IMG/VR virus record: IMGVR_UViG_2814123268_000002
Location: 12,973-76,972 of that record
Reading direction: 5' to 3' (one strand)
DNA from: a virus
Taxonomy: Duplodnaviria; Caudoviricetes
Length of the DNA: 64,000 nt
This document shows positions 1-13,262 of the stretch, in pieces. The notes under the pieces are model-generated. The model did not search any database. It was not told the origin of the DNA and worked only from the letters and a program-made list of their open reading frames with translations. Both the position numbers and the translations under genes were made by a program. Within the stretch, counting starts at the first letter, position 1, and each line of letters starts with the position of its first letter.

Positions 1-528
1 TGTCCCCTGCACCAAAATACGGCAACGGAGCTCCGCACAGAACTGCTGTGGCGTGAGGGCCCCCCCTCTCGCCGGACGCCTGCGGCCACGGCCGACGGCG
101 GTAACGTCGCCGAGCGACGGGCCCGTATTCAGCAACGTATTCCGGCGGCACAGCTGGAGATCACCCCGGAGGAGATCGACCTGCTGGCGCGCGGCTGCGT
201 GGTCCGCCTGGAGGATGGCCGTACCTACCGCGCCAGCCGCATCACGGGCGAACTGCTGCCGGTGACACACCCGCCACCGCTCAAGCGTATACCGGGACGT
301 ATCAGAGAGCAGCGCTGGCGCGCCAACCGCCGGGATCCCCGCACGCTGGCCCGGCAGTGCATCGAGCAATGGAAAGTCAAGCAGGCAGAACTGCAGGCGT
401 TGTCCACCCGGCAGGCAGAAGCAAGCTCCGAGACCCCGGATCCTGCCGAGCACACGACCACCGCCGAGCGGGCGGCCTCGCTTATTGAAAGGATGAAAAG
501 GGCAACGCGGGGAAATGGCAACGGTTAG
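1..528 (+). CDS. Replication endonuclease (P2 gpA-like), C-terminal part, 5' end outside window
   Basis: Frame is open from base 1 (CPLHQ...EIDLLARGCVVRLEDGRTY), resembles the gpA C-terminus; sits upstream of cargo and portal. Confidence 0.65.
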   Translation, partial: CPLHQNTATELRTELLWREGPPSRRTPAATADGGNVAERRARIQQRIPAAQLEITPEEIDLLARGCVVRLEDGRTYRASRITGELLPVTHPPPLKRIPGRIREQRWRANRRDPRTLARQCIEQWKVKQAELQALSTRQAEASSETPDPAEHTTTAERAASLIERMKRATRGNGNG

Positions 529-866
529 TGACTACCGTGATACGGTACGATTCAATATCGAGCTTGTATCGATGACTGCCCCGTTGAGCAAAAAGCACAT
601 AGACACGACGCATCCCTTACAATAGCCACTAGCTATTGATGATGTAGAGGTTGAAAGATAAGTCTTCTGTTAATAAATGTAAAATCAGCTAAAGCAAAAA
701 CTTCCCTATGAAATACATCATTTTGAATAAAAAGCTAGTAAAGCCATTCATGCGATAATCACATAAACTAAGCGCCATCAAAACCGACCAATTAATATCC
801 AAACTATTTAACCAGAGGATGCTAACTACATAGGCTAGCCAAAACAAACAGCCAGCCTATCAACTA

Positions 867-1523
867 CTATTGTCCCTTAACTCTAAAAATAGAGTCAGCC
901 AACCTAGTACCGGTTGATACAAGTTTAGATAACACTCGCAATTGTTCTTTACACGCGAAATTCTCAGTTGGGTGAGGGTAATTTATTGTATGATCAATCT
1001 CACCCCAAATTTCCTCAAAAAGAGTTCTCACCTGAATCTCACAACAAATATTTGAATCAGTCTTTGGCTTAATAACATAATGAATGCTTGTATAATAAGA
1101 CTCTTTGATTTTTGGCGTAAGACCTAACGACGTAAAGAAGTCACAACTTTCAGGATCCCATGAATACGCGATAGGACTTTCTCTGTAAAACCAATCACCA
1201 TCATCTACTTTTTTCTGTATTAATTCATGAATATTTTTTAGTTGATCTTGATAAAGATGTAATATGCGAACACCAGCAAGATCAGTTACCCGATAAAATA
1301 CATTCTCCTCAGAGATCGGGGCGTCACTGCTATTTTTTCTCTCAATCTTATCTCTTAAATGGTCAACATCCTTCAACCTGCTTTTTATAGTATGAATGAC
1401 AGGGTGATGATAATCATTTAAACTAGGGTCTAGTCTAAAAGTATCAACAACACCATTCATAAAATGTTCAAAAAGATGTCGATTTGAAACATACTTATTT
1501 AATATAGTGTCTACATTTTCCAT
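867..1523 (-). CDS. RelA/SpoT-domain small alarmone synthetase (SAS)
   Basis: SRLKDVDHLRDKIERK, DLAGVRI, YTSIHY, EIQVRTLFEEIWGEIDHTINY synthetase motifs; no hydrolase domain; AT-rich. Confidence 0.9.
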   Translation of the reverse strand: MENVDTILNKYVSNRHLFEHFMNGVVDTFRLDPSLNDYHHPVIHTIKSRLKDVDHLRDKIERKNSSDAPISEENVFYRVTDLAGVRILHLYQDQLKNIHELIQKKVDDGDWFYRESPIAYSWDPESCDFFTSLGLTPKIKESYYTSIHYVIKPKTDSNICCEIQVRTLFEEIWGEIDHTINYPHPTENFACKEQLRVLSKLVSTGTRLADSIFRVKGQ

Positions 1524-1525
1524 AA

Positions 1526-2635
1526 TTAATTACCGAGCATAGATATTCTTGCAATCAAATCTTTGGTAAAAGCTTCATAGCTTTTCTTGGTGGCAATGTA
1601 TTTTGACTTTGACCCTCTCAAAGTATTTGCATGCTCGCTTTCTATATTAGGATATTCAGGAACTAACCACATAGGCAGATTATAATACTGTGCCATTGAA
1701 GGAAATGTATTATGACTATACATTACTGCTGTATTACCAATAGGTTCAGCTAGGACTGAATTGTCAATGCTACCTCTTATTGAACTAATAATAAACTGAT
1801 CAATTGTATTAGGGATACGCTCAGCATAATTTAAATGCGCTTGAGCCAGATCCCATTTTCTTTTTCCATTTTCATATTTTCTTGCATTATAGATTGTATA
1901 ACCTAAAAATCTCACAAAATTTTCAGGGAATGAATGTCTTTTCTCTGATGATATAAGTTGATAGACTGCATCGAATTCCCTCTTCCAAGAGGAAAGAGAT
2001 TTTCCAATATTTTTAATTCCATAAAGGCTAAATAAATCAGGTAGTGCAGGTATAAAAAATCCATCTACTGTAGATATGATTACTTTATTCAAGGATCCTA
2101 AGCTAGGAGACGTATCAATTATAATGTAATCATAACCATAACGTTCATTATATTCTTCAGCTAATTTTCTTATTCTGGAAATGGTTCTAATTGCAAGAGG
2201 CTCTCCTCGATATAAATCATTCCACCTACTAGCAATCTTCTCCTCATACAAATGCAGCGTTAGCCTCCCAGGAATAATATCAAGATTATCCCTCAAGTTA
2301 ACAGGAGGAGGCAAAATCTTATGATCACCAGTACCTTCTTGCGTCGGTTGTAATATATAATGAAGGCTTCTTGGTTCATTTGATATGATGTTAAAGTCTT
2401 CTGCTGATAATTTCTTTTTTGCCGAGTCAAAGCCTGAGTCTATAAAATCATTCTCTACCTCCCATAGCCTCTGTATTTTTTCTTGCTTTAAAGAATAAAT
2501 AGTTAAATTACACTGAGGATCAGCATCAATCATTAATACCCTATATCCCATCTCGCACATGCTTTGCGCAATATGAAAAGTGAGCGTTGTTTTACCAACA
2601 CCACCCTTATTATTAAAGACAGATATTATCTTCAT
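1526..2635 (-). CDS. ParA/Soj-family ATPase, long defence-island type
   Basis: Deviant Walker A NNKGGVGKTT, IDADPQCNLT, YDYIIIDTSPSLG; 2-bp gap to the SAS gene; AT-rich. Confidence 0.9.
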   Translation of the reverse strand: MKIISVFNNKGGVGKTTLTFHIAQSMCEMGYRVLMIDADPQCNLTIYSLKQEKIQRLWEVENDFIDSGFDSAKKKLSAEDFNIISNEPRSLHYILQPTQEGTGDHKILPPPVNLRDNLDIIPGRLTLHLYEEKIASRWNDLYRGEPLAIRTISRIRKLAEEYNERYGYDYIIIDTSPSLGSLNKVIISTVDGFFIPALPDLFSLYGIKNIGKSLSSWKREFDAVYQLISSEKRHSFPENFVRFLGYTIYNARKYENGKRKWDLAQAHLNYAERIPNTIDQFIISSIRGSIDNSVLAEPIGNTAVMYSHNTFPSMAQYYNLPMWLVPEYPNIESEHANTLRGSKSKYIATKKSYEAFTKDLIARISMLGN

Positions 2636-2982
2636 ACATCACCTTATTATATCAATGATTATTTTCATTTATAAAACAATATTAACGATCATAATTTATA
2701 ATGGAAATTATCAAAACATAAACATTGAAGTTATAAAAGCCAAGTTATAGCGATTAGCTTAGCCTCAAAGACACAGAATAATCAATAATATTATGCGTGC
2801 CAACTTGATCGAATTAATTTTGATTTAAAGTCAAGAACAGACCATGTAAAAATCTAACACAATCAACCGTTTTTACTAGTTAATAAAAAATCAGAAATGA
2901 CACAAAACACATATGTTCATTATGTGAGATGGAGAGACTCCAAGCCTCCACAAGTATAGCCTTCCCTCAGCCGAACAATCAC

Positions 2983-3252
2983 CTACCCCCCCTGCAGCAA
3001 CTCCAGCGCCATCTGCTTTTCCTCTGGCCCCAGTCGCTCGATCAGCAGCTTCAGGACACCGCTTTGCAACCCACTCGGCACCAGGGTATGGGAATAGGTC
3101 AGGTTCATCACCCAGGTATGGCCACACTCCAGGCGCGTACAGCGGTAGTAGGCATCGGCAAAATCATAGTTGTCGGTCTTCCAGACCGTCTTTTGGATAA
3201 TCGCCGGCGCCCCGCAGCAGCGGCATTTAATTTTTTGTCTGCGCATATCCAC
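2983..3252 (-). CDS. Ogr/Delta-like zinc-finger late transcription activator
   Basis: CxxC...YYRCTRLECGHTW motif. Confidence 0.85.
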   Translation of the reverse strand: MDMRRQKIKCRCCGAPAIIQKTVWKTDNYDFADAYYRCTRLECGHTWVMNLTYSHTLVPSGLQSGVLKLLIERLGPEEKQMALELLQGG

Positions 3253-3310
3253 CCCTGCACACCGTGGCTGTCATGGCGAAATTTTACCCATTTTTTAACC
3301 ATGCCGCGAT

Positions 3311-4366
3311 TCACTGTGCTATCTGGGCATCATCGTCAAACGTCAGGCTGAATGTCACCCGCCCAAGCCCCCCGATATCGGGAGCGGCATTGACCCCTTC
3401 CATAATCAGGCGGCGCAGCGGGATCACCTCATCCCGGTAGTACGCCTCGCGCGCCTTCAGCGGGTCACCCAGTCCGCCAGCATTGCTGGGGATGATACCG
3501 GCGAGGCCGGGCGGAAAGCGGTGGGCCGTCAGCTGATCCTGCGCGCTGACGTTCTTGATATTCAGAAACTCATCCTTGGTGCCGGAGTCTCCGATGGGGA
3601 TGACTTTTACCCCTTCCTTATCACCGCCGGGGATGTTGATAAACATCGACTTAAAGTTGCCGGCCCCCTTGGATGCCTCAATCTTCTTGCGAAACAGCCC
3701 CTCAAGCTGCGGATCCATATCCGGGTCGGTGCTGTAGAGGATATAGCCCAGGTGAGCGCCGTTCTTGTAGTAGCGCCGGCGAAAACGGGTGGCATCGACG
3801 TTAAGCATGGCGGACTCCATGCCGTGGAGGTAGTCGGGAACGCCGTAGACCTGCTGCTGGGGATCGTACTGCGCGACAAAAATCACCTCGCCGCCGCCAT
3901 AGGTGAGATCGTTGATACCGCCCTGCACGATGACCGTCCTGCGATCGGCGGTGCGGCGCAGATAGAGGGAGGGTAAAACGTGCAGCCGGTTGATGCGCCC
4001 CAGCCGATTACGCACCTTCAGCAGCCCCATATCCCCGAAGATAAGCAGGTTGGTGACCGCGGCCGCCATATCGCTGTGGGTCAGTCCCCCGCCCCCCTGA
4101 AACCCGGCCATGACCATATTGACGCGGGCGCGCAGCACTGCACCGTGGTAAGGGGCGATGTTGGCCAGCACGGCGAGATCCATCCGTTCAATCGGCGGCA
4201 GGTAATAACCGTCGTACCCGCTCCACAGCACGCCGTTATAGCTCCCCCAGGCCGCGACCGGCTCGGGATCGCCAAACTCGATAAAGCTCCCCGGCGAACG
4301 GTGCCGCATAGCGCGCTGTCCCAGCTTGCCGCCGCGCGCCTTAGGCGGCGTTTTTGTTTTCTTCAT
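3311..4366 (-). CDS. Phage portal protein (PBSX / P2 gpQ family)
   Basis: YDPQQQVYGVPDY, RRRYYKNGAHLGYI, DEFLNIKNVSAQDQLTAHRFPPGL; ATG 4366 overlaps terminase end. Confidence 0.92.
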   Translation of the reverse strand: MKKTKTPPKARGGKLGQRAMRHRSPGSFIEFGDPEPVAAWGSYNGVLWSGYDGYYLPPIERMDLAVLANIAPYHGAVLRARVNMVMAGFQGGGGLTHSDMAAAVTNLLIFGDMGLLKVRNRLGRINRLHVLPSLYLRRTADRRTVIVQGGINDLTYGGGEVIFVAQYDPQQQVYGVPDYLHGMESAMLNVDATRFRRRYYKNGAHLGYILYSTDPDMDPQLEGLFRKKIEASKGAGNFKSMFINIPGGDKEGVKVIPIGDSGTKDEFLNIKNVSAQDQLTAHRFPPGLAGIIPSNAGGLGDPLKAREAYYRDEVIPLRRLIMEGVNAAPDIGGLGRVTFSLTFDDDAQIAQ

Positions 4367-6146
4367 CACCAAAAATCCAGGTTGACCTGCGTTTGTTCCT
4401 ATAGCCGATGGGCTCATTGGCCAGGGCGTGAGCGATGGCAAAGAAGATATCGGCGTGTCCGGTTTCATCGGTACGGTCGGCGGTAAAGGTCACCGCATTG
4501 CCGGAGGCGGTCGCGCTCTGCTTTATCGCCAGGAACGACGCGGGGATATCTCTGGCGTCTTCATCCCACTCGATACGATTGCTGTCGATGACATCCAGCA
4601 TTTTCAGCACCAGGCGATTTTTTGACTCGACGCTGTAGTGAATGGCCTTGGCCTCACGCCGTGCAAACCCCTGCACCAGTTCATAGACGCCATAGCCGAT
4701 GCCGGTCACATCGATGCCGATATGGGTCATGTTGTAGCGCGATTTGATCGTCCGAATCTGGTCGGCCATCCACTGGAATGACAGGCCGCGCCAGTGGTGC
4801 TTTTCCAGCACCCGGAACCGCTCCACCGCCAGCAATGGGACGGCGATGACGACAAAGGTCGCATTATCTCCGCTGCGCGCCGGGTCAAACCCGCCCCACA
4901 CCTCACGATTACCCAGCGGCGCCGCCTCGTCGGGATGAAAGTCCTGCCAGATATGCGGATCAACGCCACACCGCACCAGTTTGGCGAAGTCGAATACGCT
5001 GTCTTTGTCATCCACAAAAACGCACATATACAGCCGGTTAAAGGCGTTTTCGCCGTAACGCTCGCGCAGCTCCTCAATATCTGCCCGGTTAAATCCGTCG
5101 GCGATGGCATCCTCCATCGTCACCACGTAGCGCCACTGCTTATCCGGGCATTCACGGCCACCGTCACGCAGTTCGTCGAATGCCGGGAACACCACGCTCT
5201 TGCGCTCGGCGTTGCCACGCCGCCATTCGTCACCGCTCCAAAACGCATAGCCCTGGTGGTTTTTGGCGGAGGGAGTGGAGAAATAGGTCAAGCGCCAATG
5301 GCTCTGGGTCGCCATCCCGGAGGCCACCTCATTAAAGGTGGTAAATTTCGAGATCCACAGATACTCATCGATATACAAATGGCCGGAGTTCGACTGTGCC
5401 GTATTGGAGTTGGTGGCCAGAAAATGCAGCTCGGCCATATTGCTCAGCCTGATCGGATTCCCTTTTAACTGAATGCCGAATTCAACCTGTGCGATTTTCA
5501 GGATATAGGTGCGAAAGACTTCGGCCTGGCGCCGGGAGGCCGACAGGAAGATTTGGTTATCCCCCGTCAGCACCGCATCTTCGAATGCCTCAAAGGCAAA
5601 ATAGTAGGTGGCGCCAATCTGGCGCGCCTTGAGCAAATTACGCACGCGGCGAAATTTATTGTCACGCAGATGCAGCTGATACTTGAACAGGTTATCCAGA
5701 AACGGCGTGAAGCTCTCGGCGGTCAACTCAGAAATATCATTCTGTTTACGCCGTCCCTTGCGCCTCCCTTCCCCCTCGGCCGCCTCAGCCTCCCCCGTAG
5801 CAGCGACATAGTCAGCCCCGGTAGCACGCCGCTGTGCAATCTCGGCCATCCGCTCCGCATGCTTATTCTTCTGCGCCATCAACTTAACGTGATGGCCAAT
5901 AAGCCGATCCAGCTCGTCACATTCCACGTCGCTCTTATGCTCGCGGGCAGCAAGCAGGGTCAGGCGCTGGGCGATGGCATCCTCGATGCAATCGGTACTG
6001 AGCTGTGCATACCATTCATATTTGGTCGCCCAGTAATACACCACTCGCGGGCTGCTTAGCTTTAATTTGCGCTGTATTTCCTTTGGCGTGTGCCGCTTTA
6101 AGTAGAGCGCCTTAGCCGCAGCGATCACTTCTTCAGAATAGGCCAT
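4341..6146 (-). CDS. Terminase large (ATPase) subunit, P2 gpP-like
   Basis: LKARQIGATYYFA, LYIDEYLW, GFDPARSGD, HADIFFA. Confidence 0.95.
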   Translation of the reverse strand: MAYSEEVIAAAKALYLKRHTPKEIQRKLKLSSPRVVYYWATKYEWYAQLSTDCIEDAIAQRLTLLAAREHKSDVECDELDRLIGHHVKLMAQKNKHAERMAEIAQRRATGADYVAATGEAEAAEGEGRRKGRRKQNDISELTAESFTPFLDNLFKYQLHLRDNKFRRVRNLLKARQIGATYYFAFEAFEDAVLTGDNQIFLSASRRQAEVFRTYILKIAQVEFGIQLKGNPIRLSNMAELHFLATNSNTAQSNSGHLYIDEYLWISKFTTFNEVASGMATQSHWRLTYFSTPSAKNHQGYAFWSGDEWRRGNAERKSVVFPAFDELRDGGRECPDKQWRYVVTMEDAIADGFNRADIEELRERYGENAFNRLYMCVFVDDKDSVFDFAKLVRCGVDPHIWQDFHPDEAAPLGNREVWGGFDPARSGDNATFVVIAVPLLAVERFRVLEKHHWRGLSFQWMADQIRTIKSRYNMTHIGIDVTGIGYGVYELVQGFARREAKAIHYSVESKNRLVLKMLDVIDSNRIEWDEDARDIPASFLAIKQSATASGNAVTFTADRTDETGHADIFFAIAHALANEPIGYRNKRRSTWIFGDEENKNAA

Positions 6147-12710: not shown

Positions 12711-13262
12711 ATGAACATTGATGCCATTTTCGATCAATTGCTGGGCAAAGAGGGGAATTATGTCGATCACCCCAGCGATAAGGGCGGTCCCACCAACTGG
12801 GGTATCACCGAAAAAACCGCCCGCGCGCATGGCTACACCGGTGATATGCGTTACCTGACCCGCGGGCAGGCCCTGGAGATCTACCGTGCCGACTATTGGC
12901 GCGCGCCCCGCTTCGATCAGGTCTATGCCCTGAGCCCCCCGCTGGCCGAGGAGTTACTGGATACGGGGGTCAACATGGGGCCGTCCGTCCCCTCTGCCTG
13001 GCTACAACGCTGGCTTAACGCCTTCAACCAGCGCGGAAAACTGTATCCGGATTTACAGGCCGATGGCAGCATCGGTCCCCGTACCCTCTCCGCTCTGCAG
13101 GCTTACCTGAACGCCCGCGGCGACGAGGGCGCCACGGTTTTGCTCTCTGCGCTGAACTGCAGCCAGGGAGCCCGCTACCTTGAGATCACCGAGCGGGATC
13201 AAGCCCAGGAAGACTTTACCTATGGCTGGATGCGGGCACGGGTGGCCACGCCCCAAACCTAA
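12711..13262 (+). CDS. Endolysin, glycoside hydrolase family 108 with peptidoglycan-binding domain
   Basis: EGNYVDHPSDKGGPTNWGIT, DTGVNMG, DGSIGPRT. Confidence 0.92.
   Translation: MNIDAIFDQLLGKEGNYVDHPSDKGGPTNWGITEKTARAHGYTGDMRYLTRGQALEIYRADYWRAPRFDQVYALSPPLAEELLDTGVNMGPSVPSAWLQRWLNAFNQRGKLYPDLQADGSIGPRTLSALQAYLNARGDEGATVLLSALNCSQGARYLEITERDQAQEDFTYGWMRARVATPQT

Follow-up and report, generated by a model that had tools for sequence, protein, structure and literature searches.

A ParA-type ATPase paired with a small alarmone synthetase: a conserved operon and candidate anti-phage module of P2-like prophages and beyond

Introduction

Why does a P2-like prophage carry a gene for a ParA-type ATPase directly ahead of one for a small alarmone synthetase (SAS)? 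The pair lies at positions 867 to 2635 of a 64,000-nucleotide stretch of viral DNA, hereafter the window, which spans positions 12,973 to 76,972 of the IMG/VR provirus record IMGVR_UViG_2814123268_000002. The locus is identical to a contig of Edwardsiella ictaluri ATCC 33202. An initial annotation, made from the sequence and its open reading frames (ORFs), had proposed an anti-phage system in which the ATPase gates the synthetase. Here, we followed the two genes through genomes, viral contigs and metagenomes and compared them with known defence and partition systems. We think it probable, though well short of certain, that the pair is a self-contained and horizontally mobile operon that acts as an anti-phage abortive-infection module, with the ATPase sensing infection and the SAS serving as the effector.

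A compact operon of two predicted enzymes

Both genes are on the minus strand. The first encodes a 369-residue ParA-like deviant Walker A ATPase (1526-2635; recognised from its ORF and Pfam matches) and the second a 218-residue SAS with a single RelA/SpoT synthetase domain (867-1523). Only bases 1524-1525 separate them. GC content is 0.31-0.38 over 900-2700, where the pair lies, versus 0.68-0.69 at 1-450 and 0.55-0.67 past 3300. The AT-rich region upstream of the ATPase gene (2636-2982, minus strand, GC 0.29-0.35) is likely its promoter region. AAGGTGA sits 5 nucleotides ahead of the ATPase ATG, and promoter-like sites are predicted from 2675 to 2646 (10/12, TG-extended) and from 2803 to 2775; overall, such sites are not more frequent than in shuffled sequences (16 versus 10.2 +/- 3.8). 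A search for terminator-like sites on the minus strand past the SAS gene (529-866) found none. The ORF list and the GC profile bear out the initial picture of two AT-rich genes 2 bp apart with an AT-rich upstream region of their own.

The SAS has RelA_SpoT as its only Pfam match (E 7e-18), and therefore no hydrolase domain. Its translation holds SRLKDVDHLRDKIERK, TDLAGVR, YYTSIHY and EIQVRT. The catalytic motifs RxK...K..RK, D-x-x-G, Y-x-S-x-H and E-x-Q-x-R-T, as they are named in the literature on RelA/SpoT homologues, are all present, as first annotated. Across 52 homologues R49, K51, K59, R62, K63, R86, Y144, S146, H148, E162, Q164 and R166 never vary, and conservation reaches at least 90% at D81 and G84. 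The AlphaFold2 model (predicted local distance difference test, pLDDT, 89) shows a single helix after the synthetase core at the C-terminus. This last helix (residues 189-217) is almost invariant across phyla and is a candidate interface. The PHROGs families that the SAS matches are of unknown function.

In structure, the best Foldseek matches of the SAS model are RelP (6fgj and 6ewz; TM-score 0.70, E ~2e-10) and also RelQ (5ded), at ~22% identity, and the match to CapRel (PDB 7ztb) is weaker (TM-score 0.59, E 1e-6). In sequence, only RelP/RelQ-type chains reach E <= 1e-5 (best E 1e-9); the sole other match at E <= 1 is a de novo designed claudin (E 0.066), and CapRel gives no sequence-level match at that threshold. 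The median isoelectric point (pI) of the SAS family is 6.2, that is, not basic. CapRel modifies tRNA. Because the SAS resembles RelP/RelQ and is not basic, it would more likely make (p)ppGpp-type alarmones than modify tRNA. The authors of PANGU, a two-gene defence system discussed below, interpret the missing positive tRNA pocket as a sign that the substrates are nucleotides (10.64898/2026.04.06.716658, in the part of the preprint available). By analogy, the non-basic character of the SAS is a lead towards nucleotide substrates here.

The ATPase matches AAA_31 (E 5e-31), CbiA (6e-16) and other ParA/MinD-type Pfam models. Its deviant Walker A motif reads KGGVGKT, and K10, K15, D37, D39 and D174 are invariant in 52 sequences, as are many residues of a C-terminal extension (residues ~250-369). 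A family-specific insertion occupies residues ~47-110. The AlphaFold2 model (pLDDT 90) finds 3pg5 as its best Foldseek match, followed by Soj/ParA. That structure is of DIP2308 from Corynebacterium diphtheriae, an uncharacterised 361-residue structural-genomics protein with a long ParA form like that of the ATPase (sequence E 1.5e-26). Among PHROGs, the ATPase matches phrog_164, ‘ParA-like partition protein’, and in a protein-cluster atlas it falls only in generic ‘ParA family protein’ clusters. Judged by their conserved residues, both the SAS and the ATPase appear catalytically intact.

The two genes are inherited together

Does the pairing recur? The initial annotation had staked its reading on the co-occurrence of ParA and RelA_SpoT genes elsewhere, and the linkage proved strict in genome, viral and metagenome loci alike. 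A pattern scan, restricted to one genome per species, gave 59 loci that encode a relative of the SAS. In all 59, the SAS gene is immediately preceded, on the same strand, by one for a ParA homologue. The gap between the two genes is -26 to +57 bases in 57 of them, with a 4-base overlap in 11; of the other two, one has a frameshifted ParA (L045) and the other a gap that is not measurable (L040). In IMG/VR, 29 loci have an SAS of 38% identity or more, and all 29 have ParA upstream (full-length in 27, cut by a contig end in 2); the two loci of 31 that have no upstream ParA encode an SAS that is only 33-35% identical. Metagenomes added 80 loci, and ParA is upstream of the SAS in 74 of the 76 that are informative. 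It is full in 59 of the 80, cut by a contig end in 13, and present but without its first ~110 residues despite available room in 2; there is no room for it in 4, and no close ParA in the remaining 2 (L229 and L287).

Nothing else recurs beside the pair. Of 710 neighbouring ORFs within 8 kb at 57 loci, the only ones that recur are ParA, in 57 loci, and SAS, in 56; there is no conserved third gene, the next commonest neighbour cluster being found in 5 of the 57. Pairwise distances of ParA and SAS correlate (Mantel r 0.856, a value that none of 2000 permutations reached), and their mean pairwise distances are alike (0.418 and 0.426). At the level of sequence, this shows that the two proteins are co-inherited without partner swapping, which speaks to a shared history and not to contact. 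The linkage extends to a divergent locus, L148, where a 33%-identical ParA (hhalign E 2e-41) still lies ahead of the SAS. This pair (L148:3342-5628, G392) encodes proteins of 323 and 235 residues. A 201-residue ORF with no Pfam match precedes it, overlapping the ParA start by 4 bases, and may be a third gene in that branch.

The 59 loci span Proteobacteria, Bacteroidota, Firmicutes, Cyanobacteria, Nitrospinales and others. Run against 1.84 billion representatives, a family profile collected 376 clusters at 50% identity (E <= 1e-30), yet among the sampled genomes of the host class the SAS is matched in 4/401 and the ATPase in 2/401. The family is thus large but patchy, in the manner of accessory mobile genes.

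A tight, often overlapping operon with the putative neutraliser first would also suit a classical toxin-antitoxin (TA), or addiction, pair. There, the SAS would be constitutively toxic and ParA would neutralise it stoichiometrically, with element stabilisation as the role and defence a side effect at most. Co-inheritance of the two proteins is in keeping with this, and Jimmy et al. 2020 (PMC7229694, in the part consulted) showed toxSAS TA modules to be marked by conserved bicistronic operons with an SAS. However, a 369-residue ATPase with conserved catalytic residues exceeds the needs of a plug-type antitoxin. The SAS is also nearer to the non-toxic RelP/RelQ than to CapRel, and the SAS of PANGU, which likewise has a bicistronic partner, is non-toxic alone according to the available part of its preprint. 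Broken genes point the same way: an intact SAS stands beside a frameshifted ParA in 2/88 loci (L040 and L045, both metagenome-assembled genomes, MAGs), and one long form of the SAS (L229) occurs with no ParA. The reverse, a broken SAS beside an intact ParA, is seen in 3/88 (L015, L059 and L083, two of them MAGs). These counts would lean, weakly, against a constitutively lethal toxin, and we regard the addiction pair as an unlikely explanation.

The SAS core also occurs in longer proteins. P0241-P0249 (410-528 residues) carry extra C-terminal domains of unknown function, P0250 (474 residues) is fused to a methyltransferase domain, P0261 (813 residues) to Pfam-annotated TPR domains, and P0308 (619 residues) has a tail that, judged by eye, resembles TPR repeats. 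A search for fusions found a ParA-type domain in 0 of 33 longer SAS proteins, and P0308 has no match to the ParA profile. The sole long form with genomic context, L229:4001-5269, has no ParA gene within 4 kb, as if its extension replaced ParA.

The P2 gpA-portal slot as one home of the pair

The pair of the window sits in a defined place. On one side, positions 1-528 (plus strand) hold the 3' end of a gene for the P2 replication endonuclease gpA, part of an 868-residue ORF (Phage_GPA 9e-112) at L145:10894-13500 of the provirus record that ends at window position 528. Because the plus-strand ORF ending at 528 is the gpA 3' end, the pair converges on gpA. An AT-rich spacer from the SAS stop codon to the gpA stop codon (529-866) forms the far edge of the inserted cargo, and GC content drops there from 0.60 to 0.36 over 301-900. 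On the other side, beyond the upstream region, are an ogr-like zinc-finger late activator gene (2983-3252, minus strand; Pfam Ogr_Delta 1.6e-09), which is the second boundary of the hotspot, and a P2-type portal gene (3311-4468, minus strand; Pfam Phage_portal 8.8e-12). By Pfam scan, the same-strand neighbours of the pair are ogr, portal and large terminase. The pair was initially placed between a replication gene and ogr/portal, convergent on the former, and the Pfam identities of gpA, ogr and portal agree.

According to Rousset 2022, in the text available, the gpA-gpQ locus of P2-like phages is a hotspot with defence systems. We compared the slot in 51 IMG/VR loci found with the portal of the window. 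In 46 of the 51, an ogr match comes shortly downstream of that to the portal, and the ogr-gpA interval is 673-4368 bases in the 35 loci where it is measurable, a somewhat overestimated length since gpA matches end near residue 700. The pair itself is absent from all 51 (0/51). Ten proteins from seven related loci were scanned as slot cargo. The closest relative (L144:1781-5238, with an ogr 96% identical) holds SIR2 (7e-155) and HerA (3e-253), L109:8499-11861 a CBASS cyclase (3e-142) and a PDC-S15/FRG protein, L128:8476-11083 ApeA-like and HEPN/RES-NTD proteins, and L129 an HNH protein. The pair thus lies, like other cargo of the gpA-gpQ hotspot, between gpA and portal at a site where relatives differ in content. 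ORFs of one and the same length, 319 residues, occur in the ogr-gpA slot of L098, L105 and L116.

The pair has entered this slot more than once. A ~67%-identical copy is present in 7/5426 complete Escherichia coli genomes, between gpA/DinI and portal of a P2-like prophage and in the opposite orientation. P2-type portal or terminase genes lie beside the pair in 9/31 viral loci and are only 32-45% identical to those of the window, so different P2-like lineages acquired the module at the same place. The variable cargo of relatives and the independent insertion in E. coli P2 prophages both uphold the suggestion, made at the outset, that this interval is a hotspot.

Farther upstream in the provirus record, L145:1181-5152 holds two integrase genes (2751-3761, plus strand; 4016-5152, minus strand) and an SNF2-helicase fragment, to the left of the P2-like early region. 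With two integrases and this fragment in L145, more than a single element may be present in the 77-kb provirus record.

Related ATPases precede other putative effectors

A profile scan of viral contigs with the ATPase found 47 distant relatives at 25-36% identity. In 11 of these 47 loci (L206, L208, L210, L212, L213, L220, L222, L223, L224, L226 and L228, all from IMG/VR), a gene for a ~289-residue protein lies directly downstream, and in 8 of the 11 the two genes overlap by 4 bases. All five partners that were scanned are SIR2_2 domain proteins, and the two of these scanned against PADLOC are ThsA-like. An example is L210:4001-5874, where the ATPase has ~330 residues. PADLOC v2 holds no model for the ATPase-SIR2 pair, and its matches to the ATPase cover the P-loop only. 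By its gene order, ParA-SIR2 looks like a second, unnamed module of an ATPase plus an effector. Abortive-infection systems are usually built in this way, with a conserved effector whose partners can be exchanged and a partner family whose effectors can be exchanged.

A quick tree search, whose long branches call for caution, placed the 22 SAS-linked ATPases of viral contigs and the window in one clade and the SIR2-linked ATPases in another, both supported. The ATPase of L148 falls outside the main SAS-linked clade on a long branch. Another of the 47, at L195:4001-7293, has a ParA-like ATPase gene that shares 4 bases with the start of a gene for full-length PglZ (PDLC02566, 1.9e-281); this ParA-type gene is inside or beside a BREX-like locus. 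Eleven near-identical distant loci have a 95-residue protein after the ATPase, and several other distant ATPases are likewise followed by small proteins, as in true partition systems.

Could the ATPase of the window serve in genuine partition, maintaining the prophage or some other element as an episome, with the SAS an unrelated or regulatory passenger? The ParA/Soj fold and the intact deviant Walker A motif are those of a ParABS ATPase. The P2 gpA-portal slot often has partition genes, as described in the available text of Rousset 2022, and a ParM-like gene is found there in relatives; in addition, some distant relatives of the ATPase are followed by proteins of 63-95 residues, as in type Ib systems. 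Against this, the neighbours of the pair in the 57 loci include no conserved gene for ParB or a small centromere-binding protein. The 500-3000 interval of the window holds no direct repeats and only one inverted repeat, which is intragenic and 14 nucleotides long; the absence of a visible ParB or parS had been remarked on from the first. An SAS at least 50% identical occurs in only 1 of 72,556 plasmid records, a 1.68-Mb Caballeronia replicon. The partner is always an SAS, across phyla and chromosomal settings, and the SAS-linked ATPases group apart, as a clade with a long branch. We consider a partition role highly improbable.

Several observations weigh against an abortive-infection role. In 58/59 species-level loci, no P2-like portal, terminase, ogr or gpA lies within 8 kb, and the P2 hotspot is thus only one of the homes of the module. 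The slot also takes non-defence cargo, such as the ParM/StbA-like actin-type segregation protein at L095:9506-10465 and the putative partition systems that Rousset 2022, in its available text, describes at gpA-gpQ in about a quarter of E. coli P2-like phages. Location alone is therefore no proof of defence. Families assigned to 102 upstream neighbours of the species-level loci are mixed: defence genes are among them (AriA/AAA_21 in 3, mad3 in 3, a type I restriction endonuclease and a patatin), as are housekeeping genes (tRNA synthetases, ThiC and G6PD). Finally, since the SAS is nearest to housekeeping RelP/RelQ, a regulatory and non-suicidal role is possible.

A further alternative is a physiological ‘moron’, in which the pair would tune host alarmones for stress tolerance, persistence or lysogeny control, and ParA would be an ATP- or DNA-dependent regulator with no part in immunity. 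The likeness of the SAS to RelP/RelQ in both sequence and fold, and the many loci among ordinary metabolic genes, speak for such a role. On the other hand, the pair is patchy (~1% of sampled genomes), AT-rich relative to its host and spread across phyla; it recurs in a P2 slot where relatives carry known defence cargo; and related ATPases pair with SIR2 in parallel. On these counts a conflict system fits better than a housekeeping one, and the physiological explanation seems to us distinctly unlikely.

Relation to known systems

PADLOC-DB v2.0.0 has no system that matches the pair and returned weak partial matches only: PDC-S33 for the SAS (6e-06, partial), and P-loop-only matches for the ATPase, among them PDC-M28B (2.7e-06 over 36 residues). 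All NCBIfam matches fall far under the cut-offs. The searchable literature, which leaves subscription journals outside its scope, describes no defence system in which a ParA-type ATPase is joined with an SAS or with SIR2. Rousset 2022 and a NAR 2026 paper on P2/P4 are silent in their main texts on the pair, which their supplementary tables (e.g. Table S5 of the former) could list, and the available parts of PMC13069673 and PMC12691689 do not mention it. The absence of a named counterpart, suggested at the outset, thus holds within PADLOC v2 and this literature.

The closest analogue is PANGU type I, which consists of Pag1A, a YejK-like nucleoid protein, and Pag1B, a GRel synthetase (preprint 10.64898/2026.04.06.716658; the part available is the source for all statements on PANGU here). 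Alone, its synthetase is inert and non-toxic, and it stays inert until bound by the partner, which DNA breakdown caused by the phage sets free; after phage-induced genome degradation, the YejK-like protein activates GRel to make pppGpp. Both PANGU and the pair are bicistronic with a small alarmone synthetase, the effector in PANGU and the putative effector here, and the PANGU partner is DNA- or nucleoid-associated, a role that is putative for the ATPase. Each of the two partner families is found with other effectors as well, namely SIR2 for the related ATPase clade here and lysozymes, transmembrane proteins and others for PANGU. However, the partner in the window matches AAA_31, CbiA and ParA models only and has the ParA/Soj fold, whereas that of PANGU is YejK-like. 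GRel, which we compared by its description, has a C-terminal DNA-mimic domain that the modelled 218-residue SAS lacks. Unlike in PANGU, ATP hydrolysis is potentially part of the switch.

Other relatives share one gene or one trait. CapRel, a fused toxSAS TA protein (PDB 7ztb), has the same RelA/SpoT synthetase fold and is a prophage-borne anti-phage effector, a role that is putative for the SAS. CapRel differs in being one polypeptide with a C-terminal sensor/antitoxin, whereas the window has two genes and an acidic enzyme (pI ~6) nearer to RelP/RelQ. The toxSAS TA modules FaRel, FaRel2, PhRel, PhRel2 and CapRel are built as conserved two-gene operons around a single-domain SAS, and such a conserved bicistronic operon is also what we found in genome, viral and metagenome loci. 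None of the six antitoxins described in the consulted part of Jimmy et al. 2020 (PMC7229694) is a ParA-type ATPase.

RelP and RelQ (6ewz, 6fgj and 5ded) are the best sequence and fold matches of the SAS, and their catalytic motifs align with it. They are stand-alone core genes of Firmicutes, and in this they differ from the SAS family of the window, which is accessory, mobile and coupled to a ParA-like gene. ParA/Soj ATPases and DIP2308 (3pg5) share the deviant Walker A fold with the ATPase, and 3pg5 is also a long form. ParABS systems differ in that the pair has no ParB, no parS-like repeats and no plasmid association and sits inside an integrated P2-like prophage. By their defining features, the pair is therefore not a PANGU, CapRel or ParABS system; by analogy, it plausibly works like PANGU.

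A proposed mechanism

How might an ATPase and a synthetase combine into an abortive-infection module? Alarmone synthetases are already known as defence effectors in CapRel, Phrann gp29 and PANGU. Once switched on, the SAS would transfer pyrophosphate from ATP to a purine nucleotide to give (p)ppGpp-type alarmones, and the flood of alarmones together with the drain on nucleoside triphosphates would arrest growth of the infected cell. ATPases of the ParA/Soj type form dimers with ATP and attach to a surface, most often the nucleoid, until hydrolysis, stimulated by a partner, sets them free. The ATPase of the pair would act as the sensor and switch, cycling between an ATP-bound dimer, usually on the nucleoid, and a free form. 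Infection, for example through host DNA breakdown or a phage protein, would shift this cycle and alter the hold of the ATPase on the SAS. ParA could either hold the SAS off, as an antitoxin does, or turn it on, as YejK does in PANGU. We lean slightly towards ParA licensing the SAS rather than restraining it.

Implications

If the ATPase senses infection through its ATP/DNA cycle, this would be a new trigger logic in bacterial immunity, and a bacterial ATPase family that is among the best studied would gain a role outside segregation. The ParA-SIR2 modules that exist in parallel suggest that this design extends to other effectors. It is conceivable, though we hold it doubtful, that the long ‘DPQCN’ ParA-type ATPases are an unrecognised class of infection sensors that license interchangeable suicide effectors, an alarmone synthetase in one case and a SIR2 NADase in the other. 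Such ATPases would monitor the condition of the nucleoid or of the ATP pool. If true, they would be a second, ATP-driven counterpart to the YejK-based PANGU, across many phyla and prophages.

With two genes only and a native version in an E. coli P2 prophage, the module is directly testable. Because the family is large and crosses phyla, the answer would annotate thousands of genes now labelled ‘ParA family protein’ and ‘GTP pyrophosphokinase’.

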